Shown here piece by piece: positions 35,870-57,929 of a DNA stretch of 64,000 nucleotides. The stretch lies in NCBI GenBank assembly GCA_963737905.1, contig CAVTUQ010000025.1:32001-96000 (forward strand), read 5' to 3'. The position numbers and the translations under genes were made by a program. Source of the DNA: an uncultured delta proteobacterium (lineage in GTDB: Bacteria > Desulfobacterota > Binatia > UBA9968). Each line of letters opens with the position of its first letter. The stretch's first letter is position 1. Under the pieces are notes generated by a model, which was not told the DNA's origin, did no database searches, and saw only the letters and a list, made by a program, of their open reading frames with translations.

Positions 35870-36510
35870 CTTTCTGCCCTCTCGTCGAAGCTGCTGAGCA
35901 GCGCCTCAACGGCATCGTCCCAGGTGGGCAGCGCTTGGCGGCCCTTGAATCGATACAGCGCATCGAAACTCTCGCGTCTGAGCCGGATCCAGGCGCTACC
36001 GGGGAAATAACGGTCCATAAGCTCGCGCCACAGTCGAACCGGAAGCCGGTAGGCAGCCTCCTTTTCCCAGGGTATTTGCTCGACGCTGAAGCCAAGCTGC
36101 CCTCGAGTGAAAATCGTCCCGCTGAAAAGAAAAAGCAGTGGCACCTCGCCCTCTTCAAGGGACTCCAGATATTTGGCCGCCACGACCTCGAAATCGTAAG
36201 TGCAAGTAATCGGTAGATCGATCACGGTCGTGCCTTGAAATCCCGGCACCATCAGTGTGGCGTGGGTCCACAACAGAGTTTTCAGCGTATCCCTCCAACG
36301 ATCGGGCTCGCCGAAGAGTTCCAGGAGCTGGCTTTCCTCACCGGACGAATAATGGCGTCGTCTTGGCTCAACTTGGATCTGACAGCGCAGCGCAACGGCA
36401 TGAATCTGTTCACCGGTCCCTTCGGCAATCTGCAACCGAAAAACTAAGGTCGGCACGACGGCATAAGGTTCAATCCGGGCATCGATAACGGTAAATGCAA
36501 GTTTGCTCAT
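35866..36510 (-). CDS. DUF6084-like hydrogenase-associated protein (HhaB-like)
   Basis: LFGEPDRW, CTYDFEV, FLFSGT; position in the operon. Confidence 0.75.
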   Translation of the reverse strand: MSKLAFTVIDARIEPYAVVPTLVFRLQIAEGTGEQIHAVALRCQIQVEPRRRHYSSGEESQLLELFGEPDRWRDTLKTLLWTHATLMVPGFQGTTVIDLPITCTYDFEVVAAKYLESLEEGEVPLLFLFSGTIFTRGQLGFSVEQIPWEKEAAYRLPVRLWRELMDRYFPGSAWIRLRRESFDALYRFKGRQALPTWDDAVEALLSSFDERAER

Positions 36511-37166
36511 CCGGCGTTAACCGCCTCGGTGTGAACTTCTGTGCTCCGTCCGCGTACATCCGCAAAAAATGCGTCGATTTCCTGCCACGCCTCTTCGCCG
36601 CCGTCGAATCCTTTCCACCGCCGTCGAATGCGTCCCACCAGCTCGTAACAAGCGTCGATGGGAACGATGTAGCATTCGAACTCTCCCCGCCTCTGGACGT
36701 TTCGCACCAGCAGCGCCTCCACGTCGGTAGCGAGGGTTGCGAGCAATGGATTCGTTCTGGCCAATTCATCCCAGGTCTCCAGGGAAAGCAGCGACTCCGT
36801 CGCCCCCACCGGACTCGGATAAAAAACCACCATGCGACCCAGCGATGTGTTGAAGAAGAAAAACGCGATACCGACCGGAATTTGCAACTGGCTCCATTGC
36901 GCATCGGTGAGGATCAAACCCGGGGCATAGAGATAGCGTTCGGGCACCGCCCTATACTTGCCTCTCGCCGCCCCTTCATGAGCGAACAGAAGATAACAGG
37001 GACGGCACACGCACATGAGAACCCGGGTCTCGGTATTGACCGCGTGGGAGTGCTTCTCGGCGATTTCTGCGCCGCAGAACTCGCAATCTTCCCTGGACCG
37101 CGGTTTCGGTTGCGGTTCGACGAAGCGTTTAAGCTTCGCGAAAGGCTGCTTAGTTTGCTCGGTCAC
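36507..37166 (-). CDS. DUF5947-like hydrogenase-associated protein (HhaA-like)
   Basis: CEFC, CVCRPC, FYPSPVGATES, WKGFDGG. Confidence 0.75.
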   Translation of the reverse strand: MTEQTKQPFAKLKRFVEPQPKPRSREDCEFCGAEIAEKHSHAVNTETRVLMCVCRPCYLLFAHEGAARGKYRAVPERYLYAPGLILTDAQWSQLQIPVGIAFFFFNTSLGRMVVFYPSPVGATESLLSLETWDELARTNPLLATLATDVEALLVRNVQRRGEFECYIVPIDACYELVGRIRRRWKGFDGGEEAWQEIDAFFADVRGRSTEVHTEAVNAG

Positions 37167-37178
37167 AGAAATCTTCCG

Positions 37179-37252
37179 GTTCAAAGTTCAAAGTTCAAGG
37201 TTCAAAGTCTGAATGGCCCCGATCCTTGAACCTTGAACGTGGAACCTTGAAC
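37179..37252. repeat. heptamer-periodic hairpin
   Basis: (gttcaaR)x4 ... cttgaac cttgaac gtggaac cttgaac. Confidence 0.75.
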
Positions 37253-37263
37253 TGTCGTTTCGA

Positions 37264-38148
37264 CTATCCCGTCGCGACCGCGATCTTCATGCCATCCTTC
37301 TCTATGAGCAGAGGCAATGGCGCCAGATGAAGCTCGCCCATGTCCAAACATTGCCCGGCAGTGCGCAAATCGTAACGCCGCGCGCAGGAGGAGCAGGTTA
37401 GTTGGTTCTCCTCGAGAGCGCTTCCGCCTAGCGTCGAGCCACAGGACGGGCAGGAGTCCTGATAGGCGTAGAAGGTCTCGCCGATCTTGCACAAAAGAAT
37501 GCTCATCCCTGCCAATTTTGTGAGAGCGAGATTTCCCGGAGTGAACTCAGGCAGCGTGTCGAGCGCTATCCACTGTCCCGAACTAATTTCGAGATCTTGC
37601 GTGGCTGTTGGGTTGCTCTTCGGGAAAGCGCCGTTTCCGTTCGAAGCGATAGTTGTGGATGGACTCGATCCCTCGACCTCAATGCGTACGACTTCGGGTG
37701 CCGCCTCTTCGATTGCCTTCTCGATCGCCAGTTTCATGGTGATCGTCGATGAAGGGCAACCGTCGCAGCTTCCTTCGAGGCGCAAGCGAACTATGCCCTC
37801 GTTTACACCGAGGAGCTTGACGTCGCCGCCATGGGAACCGAGGTAGGGGCGCACACGATCAAGAGCACGCGCGATTCGCGTTTCAACATTGAGTGGATGC
37901 AACCCATGAAGAACCAGCAGGCTCGCCACGAGATCGTCTGCCGCGAGCCGGTCAAATATTTTATCCGTCGACTCCGTGTCATCGACGATCTCCAGGATGC
38001 GGGCCAACGCGAAGCCATATAACTCCATCAACAGCCGGACCAACTCTTCAGCCTTCGCACGAACGCGGGGATCGGCAACGGTTCCGAGTTCCTGGAGCAG
38101 GCTCTCGATGCGGTCGCCCGCCGCGCGGAGATCTTTTTCCTGTGACAT
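37264..38148 (-). CDS. NifU-like + Rieske-like FeS protein (HhyE-like)
   Basis: LHGLHP, VRPYLGSHGGDV, GSCDGCPSS, C-terminal CPSC...CSSC. Confidence 0.85.
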   Translation of the reverse strand: MSQEKDLRAAGDRIESLLQELGTVADPRVRAKAEELVRLLMELYGFALARILEIVDDTESTDKIFDRLAADDLVASLLVLHGLHPLNVETRIARALDRVRPYLGSHGGDVKLLGVNEGIVRLRLEGSCDGCPSSTITMKLAIEKAIEEAAPEVVRIEVEGSSPSTTIASNGNGAFPKSNPTATQDLEISSGQWIALDTLPEFTPGNLALTKLAGMSILLCKIGETFYAYQDSCPSCGSTLGGSALEENQLTCSSCARRYDLRTAGQCLDMGELHLAPLPLLIEKDGMKIAVATG

Positions 38149-38175
38149 GAGAAGCTTCTTGCCGCTGAGTCGCTG

Positions 38176-38210
38176 CCCCTATCCTCACCTTCCCCCGAGG
38201 CGGGGGAAGG
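38176..38210. repeat. REP-like element, inverted partner at about 39808-39843
   Basis: cccctatcctcaccttcccccgaggcgggggaagg versus ctccccgcctcgggggaggattgcggtggggg. Confidence 0.55.
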
Positions 38211-38296
38211 AACCGGAAAAAGACAGAGCTAAGTTTCGGTTCTTACCTTCGAATTTTCCGAACTTGGCGCCCTTTGCGCCTCTTATGAAAATACAG

Positions 38297-39532
38297 TCAC
38301 GCAGCCATCTGCAATTTCTCCAAGCTGATTTCATAGCCGAGTTTTTGTAGCCGGGTCACGCAGCGTTTGGTGACAGCCTGACGGTCGCGTTCATCAAAGT
38401 AGTTCGCACCCAGATCCGAATAGGGCTGTTTGCGCGTGAGCAGATGATAAGCGATCACCAAAATCGAATGGCCGACCGCCACCTGAGCTTTCTTCTTGCC
38501 GCGCCGAGCACCGATGCGGTGATACTGGGAGCTCAAATATTTATTCTTGGTGTGCGCGGCCCCATGCGCGGCTTCCACCAGGCAGTGACGCAACCACGGG
38601 CTGCCTTTACGCGTGCGCCCGGTGCGACGCTTACCTGCCGACTCGTTGTTCCCAGGGCACATACCCGCCCACGATGCCAGATGCCGGGCGCTCGCAAAGC
38701 GGCTCATGTCACCACCGGTTTCCGCCCACAACACCTCGGCCGTGCGCTGGCTTACTCCGGGAATGGTATCGAGCCAGGCGATCTCTTGCTCAAAAGGGCG
38801 CAGTCTCGCCTCGATTTCACCGCTGAGCCGTTCGATCGCTCCTTCCAGATAGTCGATCTGCGCCAGATGCTCGGCGATCAGAAAGCTCTGATGGGGCTGC
38901 AGCCGACCCGAGAGCGCCTCTACCAGTTGCGCACGCTTCTCTTTGAGCCGGCCCTTGGCCAAGCTGGCCAGCTCTTGGGTGTCTCTTTGTCCCGCCACCA
39001 GCGCCTCCAGCATCAGTCGCGCCGAGACCCCGTCGATGTCGCTGACCACGTTCGACAACTTGATATTGGCCGCCTCCAGCACCTTCTGAAGTCGGTTGAG
39101 GGTGCGGGCGCGGTCGCGCACCAAGGAGCTCCGATACCGCGTCAACTCGCGCAATTCACGGACATCGGCGGGTGGTACAAAACTACCTCGCAGCAATCCG
39201 TGCGCGAGCAACTCCGCTATCCACTCGGCATCGCGAACATCGGTCTTGCGACCGGGCACCGCTTTGAGATGCTGCGCGTTGACCACCAGCAACTCAAATT
39301 GCCCTTCCAGAATGTTATAGACCGGCTTCCAATAAACCCCCGTCGATTCCATCGCCACGTGCGTGCACCCTTCCTGCGCCAGCCAATCCGCCAGCCCCAG
39401 CAGATCCTTGGTCATCGTCCCAAACTGTCGAATCTCTCTTTCCCAAGCACTACCCAACCACTTCAGCCGACACGCCGTGATACTTCGCTTGTGAACGTCC
39501 AACCCACAACAGCGTTGGTAAATCACTTGCAT
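38297..39532 (-). CDS. IS110 DEDD recombinase, intact
   Basis: GLDVHK, AMESTG, KTDVRDA, TIPGV, ESAGK. Confidence 0.95.
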   Translation of the reverse strand: MQVIYQRCCGLDVHKRSITACRLKWLGSAWEREIRQFGTMTKDLLGLADWLAQEGCTHVAMESTGVYWKPVYNILEGQFELLVVNAQHLKAVPGRKTDVRDAEWIAELLAHGLLRGSFVPPADVRELRELTRYRSSLVRDRARTLNRLQKVLEAANIKLSNVVSDIDGVSARLMLEALVAGQRDTQELASLAKGRLKEKRAQLVEALSGRLQPHQSFLIAEHLAQIDYLEGAIERLSGEIEARLRPFEQEIAWLDTIPGVSQRTAEVLWAETGGDMSRFASARHLASWAGMCPGNNESAGKRRTGRTRKGSPWLRHCLVEAAHGAAHTKNKYLSSQYHRIGARRGKKKAQVAVGHSILVIAYHLLTRKQPYSDLGANYFDERDRQAVTKRCVTRLQKLGYEISLEKLQMAA

Positions 39533-39539
39533 TGCCTCA

Positions 39540-39760
39540 CCCCCTATCGAAAGCTAATTTCCCAAGACCAAAGGAGCACTCGTCTTGAAAAGATTCTCTT
39601 ATGCGTGCTTCCCTATACTGGGAGCAACAGACCGTGTTTCCTTAGAATGCTCGGGTCCTACTTTGCCCAGGCTCTTGGCGCTAGACGCAAATCGACCGCC
39701 GGTCATTGGCCTTCGGCAATGCGACGCTACCATTTTCATCCGCCGTGTTGTACCGATTGG
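39540..39760 (-). ncRNA. putative IS110 bridge RNA
   Basis: 5' non-coding end with segments matching the target (TTTGCGTCT, GCAAAG) and the donor junction (CATAAGAG, TTGCT); boundaries approximate. Confidence 0.6.
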
Positions 39761-39849
39761 TACATGAATTACTTTGCGCGAGATATCTTCTTTCCGCTCC
39801 CTTGTTTTCTCCTCCCCGCCTCGGGGGAGGATTGCGGTGGGGGCGTTCC

Positions 39850-41622
39850 TTATTCCACCTGATTCAGCAAGGTTGGCGAGTGCCGCTTCTCCAAGACCTT
39901 GCCGTTCCCTAGATACATGTGCACGCCGCATGGCAAGCACGGATCGAAGCTCCGCACCGTGCGCATGATGTCAATGCCTTTGAATTTATCTCCAGGTCCG
40001 TTCTCCTCGAATATCGGCGAGTCCTGTACAGCGTCTTCGTAGGGCCCGGGAGTACCGTAGATGTCACGCGGGTTGGCATTCCACGGCGTGGGCGGATAGG
40101 GATGATAGTTGGCAATTTTTCCGTCGCGAATCACCATGTGATGCGAAAGCACGCCCCGCACAGCTTCCGTAAAACCACAGCCGATGGCGTCCTTGGGTAC
40201 CTTGAAAGGTTCCCAAGTTTTGGTGTGCCCGGCCCGCACCTCCTTCAACGCCTGCTCGATAAAATGCAACGCACAGGCGGCGGAATAGGCCTGAAAATAA
40301 GTCCGCGCCCGATCGCGCTCGATGGTATTGCTCCACTTTGGAATCTTCCATTCAAAGGTCACTTCGGGCTTGGTCGCTGTCTTGGGCAGGTTGATGACGA
40401 CGCTTTTGCCGGTCGCTTTCACGTAGCCGATGTCGACCAGTCCTGCCAGCGCTGTCACCCACAACCGCGCAATAGGTCCACCGCCGGTGTCTAGCGCGAG
40501 ATGATCTTTACCGTCGTACCACCGGGGCGACATCACCCAGCTATACTTGTCGTCGAAGTTTCGCTTCTGGGGCTTGGGAATCGTGTGTTGATTCCAGGGA
40601 TGAAGCTCGTCCACCGGATTACCCAGCGGGTCGTTTTTCACAAAGATCTCTTTCCCTTCCCAGTTCTCGTAATACGAATGTCCCAGCAGGATACGGATAC
40701 CGAGGTTGATCTTGACGAGATCTGTAGTCAAAAGTTTGCCGTCCACGACAATACCCGGGGTCACGAACATCTTGCGCCCCCATTCGGTCATGTCGCGATA
40801 ATTGAAATTGCAGTGCTCGGGGTCCTGCAAGCTACCCCAGCAACCGAGCAGGATGCGGCGATCGCCTACTTTTTCGTACCCGGGTAGAGCGTCGTAGAAA
40901 AAATCGAAGAGATCGTCGTGCATGGGAACGACCCGCTTCATGAACTCGACGTAACGCATCAGACGGGTCAGGTAGTCGGTGAACAATTGGATCGTTGCCA
41001 CTGTGCCGACGCCGCCCGGGTAGAGCGTGGATGGATGGACGTGGCGTCCCTCCATCAGACAGAACATTTCCCGGGTCATGCGGCTTACCTGCAGAGCTTC
41101 GCGGTAGAATTCGCCCTCGAGCGGATTGAGTGACTTCATGATGTCGCCAATGGTCTTGTAGCCGTGCGCGCTCGCTTGCGGAGCTTGGGTCTTGGCGGCC
41201 TTCTCCCAGACGCCGGGATTGGTCTCGCGCACCATCTTCTCGCAGAAGTCGACCCCCACGAGATTCTCCTGGAAGATGTTGTGATCGAACATGTATTCCG
41301 CTGCCTCTCCCAGGTTGACGATCCACTCGCCCAGATGCGGCGGCCTGACGCCATAGGCCATATTCTGGGTATAGCAGGAGCAGGTGGCATGATTGTCGCC
41401 GCATATTCCGCAGATCCGGCTGGTGATGAAATGGGCATCGCGAGGATCCTTGCCCTTCATGAAAATGCTATAGCCGCGAAAGATCGACGACGTGCTGTGA
41501 CACTCGGCGACTTTACGCTTGCCAAAGTCGATCTTGGTGTAAATACCCAAGCTCCCGACGATCCGAGTAATCGGGTCCCATGCCATTTCCACGAGATCGT
41601 TGTTCGCCTGTGCCTTGGCCAT
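39850..41622 (-). CDS. hhyL: group 1h [NiFe]-hydrogenase large subunit
   Basis: L1 TSRICGICGDNH, L2 SFDPCLPCGVH, cleavable C-terminal extension. Confidence 0.95.
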   Translation of the reverse strand: MAKAQANNDLVEMAWDPITRIVGSLGIYTKIDFGKRKVAECHSTSSIFRGYSIFMKGKDPRDAHFITSRICGICGDNHATCSCYTQNMAYGVRPPHLGEWIVNLGEAAEYMFDHNIFQENLVGVDFCEKMVRETNPGVWEKAAKTQAPQASAHGYKTIGDIMKSLNPLEGEFYREALQVSRMTREMFCLMEGRHVHPSTLYPGGVGTVATIQLFTDYLTRLMRYVEFMKRVVPMHDDLFDFFYDALPGYEKVGDRRILLGCWGSLQDPEHCNFNYRDMTEWGRKMFVTPGIVVDGKLLTTDLVKINLGIRILLGHSYYENWEGKEIFVKNDPLGNPVDELHPWNQHTIPKPQKRNFDDKYSWVMSPRWYDGKDHLALDTGGGPIARLWVTALAGLVDIGYVKATGKSVVINLPKTATKPEVTFEWKIPKWSNTIERDRARTYFQAYSAACALHFIEQALKEVRAGHTKTWEPFKVPKDAIGCGFTEAVRGVLSHHMVIRDGKIANYHPYPPTPWNANPRDIYGTPGPYEDAVQDSPIFEENGPGDKFKGIDIMRTVRSFDPCLPCGVHMYLGNGKVLEKRHSPTLLNQVE

Positions 41623-41702
41623 GTTTTTAGCCCTCCTTCATTCGACTTTCGTTTTTGGCCGTCCGACCGGCGCGCGCCTAAATTTCTCTTGCATCCTCAC
41701 CA

Positions 41703-42755
41703 CTATCTTTGGTACCCGGTTGTCAATTCAGTGCCCCGATGCCGCCATTTAGGTTCTTTATCAACTGTCTTTAGAGTGATGCTCCGCAAGCCTCGGATCA
41801 TGCTTCCATAAAGCCCGCTAATTCCCGCAGAGACCTTACTTCCCGGAGGTTCGTCCATAAAAGGCATGAACTTGTCCGGGAACCCCGGCATAGTGCAGCC
41901 GATGCAGATTCCACCCACGTTCGGGCAGCCGCCGATGCCGTTAATCCAGCCGCGTTTGGGCACGTTGCACTTGACCACCGGCCCCCAGCAACCGAGCTTG
42001 ACGATGCACTTGGGCGATCCGTATTCCGTTGCAAAGTCACCCTGTTCGTAATAACCGGCCCGATCACAGCCCTCGTGCACCGTTTGACCGAAAAGCCATG
42101 TGGGACGCAGCTGATCGTCCAGCGGAATCATCGGGGCCTGGCCGGTTGCCTGATAAAGCAAATAGAGAATCGTCTCCGACAGGTTGTCGGGATGGATCGG
42201 GCAGCCGGGGACGCAAACGATCGGAATGCCGGCTTTCGACTTCCAACTCCATCCGAGATAATCGGGCACGCCCATAGCGCCGGTAGGATTGCCGGCCATC
42301 GCATGGATGCCGCCATATGTCGCACAGGTTCCTACGGCCATGACGGCCAGCGCTTTAGGAGCCAGCCGGTCAAGCCATTCGCTCGTCGTCATCGGTTGTC
42401 CGGTCTCGAAGTTATTGCCAAAGCCGCACCAGTAGCCCTCCTTCTTGATCGCTTCATTGGGGATGGATCCTTCAACGACCAGCACGAATGGATCGATCTC
42501 ACCCCGCTCGGCCTTATAAAACCATTTGATGAACGTGTCGGCTCCCGGCTCGCCCATGCCGCCGGGACCGCATTCGAAGTCGATCAGCGGCCAGTGAACC
42601 GCGACCTTCGGCAAGCCCGGCAGCGCGCCGAGCACAATCTCCTCGATGCTCGGCTGCGTGGCGGCGGTGAGCGCCACCGAGTCCCCATCACAGCTCAACC
42701 CGGCATTGATCCACAACACGTGCACTAGAGTCTCATCTGTTTTTGGCGCAGCCAT
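41703..42755 (-). CDS. hhyS: group 1h [NiFe]-hydrogenase small subunit
   Basis: GLSCDGDS, VGTCATYGG, PGCP, HEGCDRAGYY, LGCWGP, GGCP..GGICIGC; no Tat signal. Confidence 0.95.
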   Translation of the reverse strand: MAAPKTDETLVHVLWINAGLSCDGDSVALTAATQPSIEEIVLGALPGLPKVAVHWPLIDFECGPGGMGEPGADTFIKWFYKAERGEIDPFVLVVEGSIPNEAIKKEGYWCGFGNNFETGQPMTTSEWLDRLAPKALAVMAVGTCATYGGIHAMAGNPTGAMGVPDYLGWSWKSKAGIPIVCVPGCPIHPDNLSETILYLLYQATGQAPMIPLDDQLRPTWLFGQTVHEGCDRAGYYEQGDFATEYGSPKCIVKLGCWGPVVKCNVPKRGWINGIGGCPNVGGICIGCTMPGFPDKFMPFMDEPPGSKVSAGISGLYGSMIRGLRSITLKTVDKEPKWRHRGTELTTGYQR

Positions 42756-42994
42756 GTTCATTGCCTCCTTTGTGTGCTAGCGAACCGCTCCCGCTCGGAG
42801 CTACGCTCCAGGAAAAGATGGGCCTACAGATTCAATTAACGTGATTAATGTAGTCGGCGCATACTCGCAATACGGAGTACGCCCGTTTCTTTTATGAGGG
42901 ATTAGCCGGTTCGCTCCTAGGGGATTCCCCTAGCAAAACTGCAGTACTGGAATGATGAACAATCACTGCTGCAGATAAATAATTCTTTTCAAAA

Positions 42995-57901: not shown

Positions 57902-57929
57902 TCTCCCGCAAAGGCGCCAAGGCGCGAAG
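57902..57929. repeat. REP-like repeat resembling the empty IS110 target
   Basis: TCTCCCGCAAAGGCGCCAAGGCGCGAAG versus reconstructed TCTCGCGCAAAGGCGCAAAGGGCGCCAAG. Confidence 0.6.

Follow-up and report, generated by a model that had tools for sequence, protein, structure and literature searches.

Bridge recombinases are under development for programmable DNA insertion, and the rules by which their guides are read come nearly all from IS621 and its close relatives. In passages of PMC13626964, the arrangement is given as left end (LE), recombinase and right end (RE), with CT cores at both borders. Siddiquee et al. (2024; PMC11187229) assign transposases of 395-455 aa to the IS110 subgroup proper, and describe the segment order of IS1111-type seekRNAs as reversed with respect to that of the IS110-type element ISEc21. 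For IS621 and ISPpu10, it is established that the target loop directs the element to repetitive extragenic palindromic (REP) sequences, wobble pairs and repeats in convergent pairs being part of this targeting (bioRxiv 10.64898/2026.03.19.712850). A 2026 preprint describes 32,190 bridge RNAs by 86 covariance models, and many of these differ from IS621; the elements considered here may be among them. Here we examine an IS110-family insertion sequence in a 64,000-nt stretch of DNA from an uncultured delta proteobacterium (Desulfobacterota; Binatia; UBA9968; contig CAVTUQ010000025.1, positions 32,001 to 96,000). We use the term window to refer to this whole stretch, and give all positions relative to it. 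We consider it very probable that a bridge RNA is encoded in the element's left end, its target loop preceding its donor loop, and that this RNA addresses the core of a dispersed genomic repeat; compared with IS621, the attachment site is inverted.

The borders of the element can be read directly from the sequence. On the plus strand, TTTGCGC (38273-38279) and a CT core (38280-81) are followed by the first letters of the element, CTTATG (38282-87), and at the opposite border CATGAATTA (39763-71) is followed by a second CT core (39772-73) and TTGCGC (39774-79). The rejoined flanks (TTTGCGC-CT-TTGCGC) and the donor junction (ending -CT-CTTATG) had been proposed in an earlier note on this DNA, and both are confirmed at the two borders. 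The encoded transposase has nearly full-length matches to DEDD_Tnp_IS110 (PF01548; E 1.4e-32; residues 9-154) and Transposase_20 (PF02371; E 1e-22; residues 254-337), and it distantly matches the solved IS621 transposase structure 8wt6 (E 3.2e-11); the structure of the ISCro4 transposase was also matched. The non-coding left end is long (239 nt) and the right end is short (15 nt), as in the IS110 group. With its DEDD RuvC-like and Tnp domains, its site- and orientation-specific insertion, the absence of a target duplication and the same dinucleotide at both borders, the element has the features by which the IS110 family is defined.

Searching the genome with the element gave six matches, i.e., two full-length copies at 100% identity and four pieces at 67-75% identity on contigs C26 and C33. 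The second full-length copy (contig C37, 84890-86379) is identical to that of the window over all 1,490 bp, and its flanks read ..TTTTGCGT/CT/element/CT/TTGCGCGAGATAT. The two copies occupy one and the same repeat core, in equal orientation relative to it, which answers the question, raised in the earlier note, of whether other genomic copies share the core, and bears out its claim that a repeat is the target.

The rejoined flanks, TTTGCGY-CT-TTGCGC, belong to a dispersed and mostly intergenic genomic repeat, of which 24 exact copies are unoccupied. Fourteen of the exact copies carry the C variant of the target 15-mer (TTTGCGCCTTTGCGC), compared with 0.015 expected from base composition, and ten carry the T variant (0.015 being the expectation for one 15-mer). 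There are 40 places in the genome within one mismatch of the 15-mer and 119 within two, although these counts partly include overlapping registers. Eleven of the 14 C-variant copies lie outside stop-to-stop frames of at least 150 codons, while such frames make up 85.7% of the genome. The sequences around the repeat are conserved (..CCGAACTTGGCGnnC..GAGAnAT), and at least six pairs of repeats stand in inverted orientation, 50-90 bp apart. The repeat is REP-like in being dispersed, mostly intergenic and often present as inverted pairs; it is made up of TTKGCGY units in tandem, with small GCGC palindromes, and no long palindrome stood out clearly. An unoccupied look-alike elsewhere in the window, previously placed at 57902, is indeed a diverged member of this family, with its position shifted by 4 nt (Table 1).

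The uninterrupted target was also observed as such. A contig from a DNA run of a soil metagenome (X1) joins 38279 to 39772 with a 2-nt overlap, which is the precise empty site, and it differs from the window by two letters and one indel over 177 nt, corresponding to a haplotype that is approximately 98% identical. This run is perhaps the source sample of the genome itself, so the contig speaks for an uninterrupted target and is not independent evidence on habitat.

The left end was compared with those of relatives from public genomes, 79 loci being kept at 51-69% protein identity from among 495 confirmed relatives. Both the fold and the covariation between arms and flanks rest on 38-51 distinct relatives. 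A 131-position core profile of the upstream region, built from 11 of the 12 closest relatives (row L022 was left out), matched 79 of the 81 sequences searched, and the match was always upstream of the transposase gene and in the direction of the gene. A MAFFT alignment of all 72 upstream regions proved too gappy and was set aside in favor of an alignment of the 12 closest relatives and of the profile, and the fold was tested on a 42-sequence MAFFT alignment (A3), for which 32 base pairs were named in six helices. These are a 5' hairpin, the outer stem and inner hairpin of a first loop, and the outer stem and two-part inner stem of a second loop, so that the conserved fold contains the two internal loops expected of a bridge RNA. 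In A3, 91.4% of 1,289 cells pair, versus 76.7% in shuffled alignments, with none of 500 shuffles reaching the observed value. When the partners are slid by 1-3 columns, pairing falls to 33-44%; this control is somewhat flattering because the structure was partly derived from the tested sequences, but the double changes are unaffected by this. Such changes on both sides occur in 25 of the 32 pairs, including all six pairs of helix 1, in which 92.8% of cells pair.

On the minus strand, the first loop reads GGTC (39697-39694), GA, TTTGCGTCT (39691-39683), a hairpin, GGGCAAAG (39668-39661), TAG and GACC (39657-39654), and the second loop includes TTGCT (39627-39623) and CATAAGAG (39603-39596). The earlier note had recognized the first of these blocks as a target guide, with the order of its parts correct and the start of GGTC placed one position off (39696 instead of 39697); it had also counted one mismatch for each target half, and these turn out to be one U-G wobble and one G-G mismatch. 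The wobble is the single mismatch of the 5' arm at the window copy, and at the second copy (TTTGCGT-CT) this arm matches at 9/9 positions. Of the two donor segments that had been proposed, CATAAGAG stands, with an 8/8 match to right end plus core, and TTGCT is discussed below.

Covariation between the arms and the DNA next to each element is strongest for the 3' arms. The target-loop 3' arm, taken as the 11 nt after the inner hairpin, shares a word of at least 8 nt with the 120-nt upstream region of its own locus in 39 of 51 distinct guides, whereas mismatched guide/region pairs do so in just 23 of 2,550 cases, and the match consistently ends directly before the conserved TCATG of the left end. 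The donor-loop 3' arm (8 nt after the invariant AGCACG) matches its own downstream region over at least 7 nt in 35 of 39 cases, compared with 45 of 1,482 mismatched pairs; the copy of this arm at the right end comes after a run of TTTT, whose end is exactly 8 nt from the flank in 46 of the 50 distinct right ends. The two nucleotides that follow the 3' target arm, which correspond to the handshake guide of IS621, equal the first two nucleotides of the element in 35 of 38 relatives, versus 15% in mismatched pairs. The core dinucleotide is the same in both loops in all 42 relatives (37 AG, 4 AC, 1 AA). For the target-loop 5' arm, the signal is weaker but significant: at least five contiguous matches to core plus right flank are found in 13 of 64 cases (mismatched, 44 of 3,960), and the mean over nine positions is 5.47 for own sites and 3.92 for mismatched ones. 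Arm-to-flank matches recur with different sequences across dozens of relatives, and the fold and three of the four proposed guide segments are supported by this comparative evidence. Thus the segments of both target-loop arms and of the donor-loop 3' arm lie in loops and covary with their DNA, as the earlier note had required of them. The relatives with an AC core are L011, L024, L046 and L049, and the one with AA is L047; in each, the change is mirrored in both RNA loops, and these relatives use GT or TT, rather than CT, as the crossover dinucleotide.

Table 1. Coordinates of the element, its predicted RNA and its target (window positions; arms are listed in minus-strand direction where the first number is the larger)
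Feature	Position	Strand	Basis or match
IS110-family insertion sequence, 1,490 bp	38282..39771	-	borders from sequence; identical second copy; empty-site contig
Transposase (bridge recombinase) gene, 411 aa	38297..39532	-	Pfam domains; distant IS621 transposase match
Right end of element, 15 nt after stop codon, ending ...ATTTTCATAAG in RNA sense	38282..38296	-	
Non-coding left end encoding predicted bridge RNA	39558..39771	-	conserved scaffold and fold
5' hairpin UGUACC-AAUC-GGUACA, just after conserved TCATG of left end	39749..39764	-	helix 1
Conserved ATGAAAAT in left end, ~30 nt inside	39732..39739	-	columns nearly invariant in A3
Target-binding loop: outer stem GGUC/GACC, two arms, inner hairpin	39654..39697	-	helices 2-3 and covariation
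Target-loop 5' arm UUUGCGUCU	39691-39683	-	reverse complement of core + right flank
Inner hairpin of target loop	39683-39668	-	
Target-loop 3' arm GGCAAAG	39667-39661	-	left flank + core
Handshake UA	39660-59	-	first 2 nt of element
Donor-binding loop: outer stem GAGCAUUC/GAGUGCUC, inner stem UGU-GCU-CCC/GGG-A-GC-ACG	39574..39652	-	helices 4-6
Donor-loop 3' arm CAUAAGAG	39603-39596	-	right end (last 6 nt) + core, 8/8
Left half of occupied repeat, ..GAACTTGGCGCCC TTTGCGC CT	38259..38281	+	sequence
Right half of occupied repeat, CT TTGCGC GAGATAT, identical at both copies	39772..39786	+	
Unoccupied diverged member of target repeat family, 2 mismatches to 15-mer	57906..57920	-	

The orientation of this system was established by comparison with three IS621 copies in Escherichia coli W (annotated as IS621-family transposase), which we read directly as a reference using the pairing rule given in Durrant et al. 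(2024; PMC11208160). In transposase sense, the IS621 junctions are ..ATCAGGC-CT-TGTATT.. and ..ACAGTAT-CT-ACG.., the target-loop 5' arm ATCGGGCCT is a sense copy of left flank plus CT, and the 3' arm TTGCGTAG is the reverse complement of CT plus right flank. The junctions of the present element, again in transposase sense, are ..GCGCAA-AG-TAATTC.. and ..CATAAG-AG-RCGCAAA. Because the CT core is in antisense to both the RNA gene and the transposase gene, the right flank is addressed by the arm ending in CU and the left flank by the one ending in AG, and the order of IS621 and ISEc21, where pairing with the bottom strand falls to the first target segment, does not apply here. Over 46 relatives, the swapped assignment of arms scores 8.26 for own loci versus 3.51 for other loci, and 4.33 versus 3.22, while the IS621-type assignment is at background (3.22 versus 3.23, and 2.93 versus 2.99). 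The left-flank window in the swapped score was placed by the match itself, and the word-sharing test given above (39/51) is the unbiased version of this comparison. It is thus the attachment site that is inverted with respect to the genes for RNA and transposase; the loops keep the order, and the arms the chemistry, of IS621. The flip of guide order suggested in the earlier note is real in this sense, although it was worded as if the guides, and not the site, had been turned around. A copy on a Caballeronia plasmid has the same layout as the present element, whereas a relative on a Streptomyces plasmid (L092) gave no profile match and its target arms could not be read confidently. The clade spans Acidobacteriota, Chloroflexota, Cyanobacteria, Bacillota and a betaproteobacterial plasmid, and throughout it the core is antisense to the RNA gene.

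A mechanism can be proposed from these features. The RNA would be transcribed from the left end and bound by the recombinase. Its 5' target arm UUUGCGUCU would pair with the transposase-sense strand of core plus right flank, and its 3' target arm, GGCAAAG-UA, with the opposite strand of left flank plus core, with UA serving as the handshake. The donor-loop 3' arm CAUAAGAG would pair likewise for right end plus core. By analogy with IS621, the RNA-bound recombinase might then unite a circularized form of the element (junction ...CATAAG-AG-TAATTC...) with TTTGCGY-CT-TTGCGC, TTTGCGTCTTTGCGC being the proposed target for recombinase and RNA. Strand exchange at the CT/AG dinucleotide would give insertion in a single orientation with no duplication. 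Insertion would be mostly harmless to the host, given that the repeat whose core is targeted is dispersed and intergenic.

Several observations weigh against this explanation. The 3' target arm GGCAAAG has its G-G mismatch, further out, to both occupied sites, and the genome holds no copy of a site that matches this arm perfectly. The signal of the 5' arm is weak in many relatives, 23 of 64 having one contiguous match only. Folding of 39533-39773 as a single sequence was no better than for shuffles (z = -0.19), so the support for the fold comes from the comparison of relatives. A search of Rfam gave no family at E values up to 1. Scans for sigma-70-like promoters gave none in the linear element or at the computed circle junction, which carries little weight in a non-enteric host. 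Contigs from RNA libraries (X15, X16) cover relatives of 90-95% identity including the RNA region, but contigs cannot show transcription. Only two of the 26 best sites are occupied. Finally, the fourth contact expected from IS621, a donor guide for the left end, is missing, located elsewhere, or conserved beyond detection.

The likeliest alternative is that guidance is hybrid, i.e., that the RNA specifies the target and the right end, and that the left end is read by the protein or through the inverted repeat ATGAAAAT/ATTTTCAT. We regard this as rather unlikely. The donor-loop 5' side shows no covariation with its own left end (complementarity of 4.97, versus 5.04 for other loci; 38 loci), and a scan of the whole RNA for left-end words found enrichment at the handshake position of the target loop alone (7 observed, 1.1 expected). 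The segment TTGCT, which had been taken as the donor guide for this end, lies in an invariant stem (UGUYGCU/AGCACG, helix 5) and lacks such covariation, and was therefore rejected. In addition, the left end has a conserved TCATG, a hairpin and CCAC. The conserved ATGAAAAT is an inverted repeat of the conserved ATTTTCAT (38288-38295), which stands beside the variable 6 nt of the right end, and both are held in fixed registers (46 of 50 right ends; positions +28 to +35 in 34 of 38 left ends); the pair may be a sub-terminal inverted repeat or a further contact between RNA and DNA. Hybrid guidance would also bring the element nearer to the proposals made for IS1111-type elements. Nevertheless, a conserved guide that pairs with a conserved end gives no covariation, which makes the missing signal weak evidence, and the donor guides of IS621 are themselves described as tolerating mismatches (Durrant 2024, PMC11208160). 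Reading of the left end by other means would in any case refine the bridge-RNA explanation and not exclude it.

A second alternative is that the system is a dead relic, in which arms and flanks match as remnants of an older system and the copies are immobile. The small number of copies in the face of 24 free exact sites, and the failure to find a promoter in the element or at the circle junction, would fit this view. The copies are nevertheless identical over their full length, the reading frame and both domains are complete, and a haplotype of approximately 98% identity lacks the element at exactly that site, whereas decay is seen in the diverged relative on C26, whose frame is broken at 233 aa. 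We therefore consider a relic improbable. The earlier note had described the element as intact, and this holds for the open 411-aa frame with its complete domains, the two identical copies and the precise empty site. The identical copies, the intact frame and the empty-site haplotype together suggest that the element was probably active recently. As for its expression, read-through transcription has been reported for IS621 (PMC13626964), and since the present element is co-directional with the surrounding hydrogenase genes, read-through could supply both RNA and enzyme.

The remaining alternatives concern how the locus is read. Helices form on both strands of any structured region, and the RNA might accordingly be read from the plus strand of the window, in which case the inversion would be an artefact of the wrong strand. 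This is very improbable, given that two U-G pairs, present in 42/42 and 37/42 sequences, are compatible solely with the transposase-sense strand and would become C-A mismatches on the other, that the arms would then start with the core rather than end with it, unlike those of IS621, and that the scaffold is always directly upstream of the transposase start and co-directional with it. Weakest of all is an ordinary transposon with an 8-bp duplication and a chance resemblance of internal arms to flanks, which we reject because CTTTGCGC, although found on both sides of the window copy (38274-38281; 39772-39779), is an accidental fit there that fails at the second copy, where the sides differ (TTTTGCGT versus CTTTGCGC), and because the unoccupied family members and the empty-site contig hold both units in tandem and dozens of relatives show arm-flank matches with sequences of their own.

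A second, different member of the clade is present in the same genome, at ~30.8-32.4 kb of C33 and ~211.2-212.8 kb of C26 (loci L003-L006). It has the same RNA scaffold (nhmmer E values of 8.8e-8 and 1.8e-5), and its 3' target arm, ACACGAAG-UG, fits both of its own left flanks, CCACGAAG/TG, so that this member would home to another repeat; the C26 copy is the one with the broken frame. In one Anaerolineae genome there are six copies (L038, L039, L041, L042, L043 and L075) whose left flanks end in TCAGGAG and whose right flanks have CCATG 5-9 nt further on. The target of these copies resembles the stretch that separates a ribosome-binding site from its start codon, similar to the description of IS900-type elements. 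Two matches to the RNA profile occur at each of L052 (~1348 and ~2802) and L064 (~196 and ~1746), where copies stand head to tail or very close together.

The element of the window lies between the gene for a [NiFe]-hydrogenase large subunit (39850-41622) and a NifU/Rieske gene (37264-38148), and all of these are on the minus strand. They belong to a hydrogenase cluster (36507-42761) that comprises the small and large [NiFe] subunits, the insertion, the NifU/Rieske gene and a DUF5947 gene. G+C-rich, hairpin-like blocks, CCCCCGAGGCGGGGG and CCCCGCCTCGGGGG (38176-38215 and 39805-39840), flank the occupied repeat in inverted orientation. Contigs from RNA libraries of relatives join 38221 to 39851 with just 15-17 other letters between them, and these relatives thus have neither the repeat nor the element in the hydrogenase spacer.

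For the host genome the element is ordinary, i.e., a repeat-homing element in a spacer between hydrogenase genes, and apparently a recent one. For bridge recombinases as a group, the clade widens the design space, as it offers an attachment site of opposite polarity with the same RNA architecture, a long 3' target arm and natural cores other than CT, and it is a test case for which contacts are needed, since the left-end donor contact might be made by RNA or by protein. Tentatively, we suggest that the clade may represent a third, undescribed IS110 topology, in which an upstream RNA as in IS621 goes with the inverted attachment site of the IS1111 types, the 3' arm has the dominant part in choosing the target, one donor half-site is recognized without an RNA guide (perhaps by way of the sub-terminal inverted repeat), and GT and TT are natural cores alongside CT. 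If so, evolution would be free to change how the crossover site is oriented with respect to the guide gene, and the four-arm scheme of IS621 would not be the sole working design. The combination of an upstream RNA with IS1111-type segment order was not found stated in the literature text covered, a weak negative, as figures and supplements lay outside this scope; nothing on arm order was found in the portions covered of a preprint on IS110/Nop5 evolution or of a Caloranaerobacter preprint, and none of the matches listed had the phrase "bridge RNA" together with IS900, IS116, IS901, IS1110 or IS117.

Compared with known systems, the present element is in most respects like IS621. Both have a recombinase with DEDD and Tnp domains, a long non-coding left end and a short right end, a CT core at both borders, no target duplication, and repeats as natural targets. 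In both, the target loop precedes the donor loop, the 5' arms end in CU and the 3' arms in AG, the 3' target arm leads into a 2-nt handshake, and the left-target contact includes a wobble. The two proteins are no more than distant relatives (328 aa in IS621 versus 411 aa here, at the E value given above). The CT core of IS621 is in RNA sense and its 5' target arm copies the left flank, whereas here the core is antisense and the assignment is swapped; moreover, the 3' arm is here the longest and best-covarying one, and a donor guide for the left end was not found.

ISPpu10 and ISPpu9 of Pseudomonas putida resemble the present element in that their insertion, directed by the target loop, is into a repeat that is dispersed, intergenic and often in convergent pairs (bioRxiv 10.64898/2026.03.19.712850; PMC12288879), and ISPpu10 also has a U-G wobble in the left-target contact. 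In the passages concerned, ISPpu10 is mapped by the pairing logic of IS621, with the CT core in RNA sense (bioRxiv 10.64898/2026.03.19.712850), and the repeat of the present genome differs from the Pseudomonas REP in being a tandem of TTKGCGY units.

The IS1111 types (ISEc11, ISPa11 and ISKpn4) share with the present element the order of segments, the one complementary to the transposase-sense (top) strand coming first and that for the bottom strand second, and may also share a conserved sub-terminal inverted repeat (PMC11187229). The group is delimited by sub-terminal inverted repeats of 7-17 bp near both ends and a transposase of 330-350 aa, compared with 8 bp and 411 aa here, and the left copy of the repeat in the present element lies ~30 nt inside the end (+28 to +35). 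The RNA of IS1111 types is encoded downstream of the transposase gene (PMC11187229), where the present element has only the 15 nt after its stop codon, the RNA region being upstream. The present clade therefore combines an upstream RNA with the segment order of the IS1111 types.

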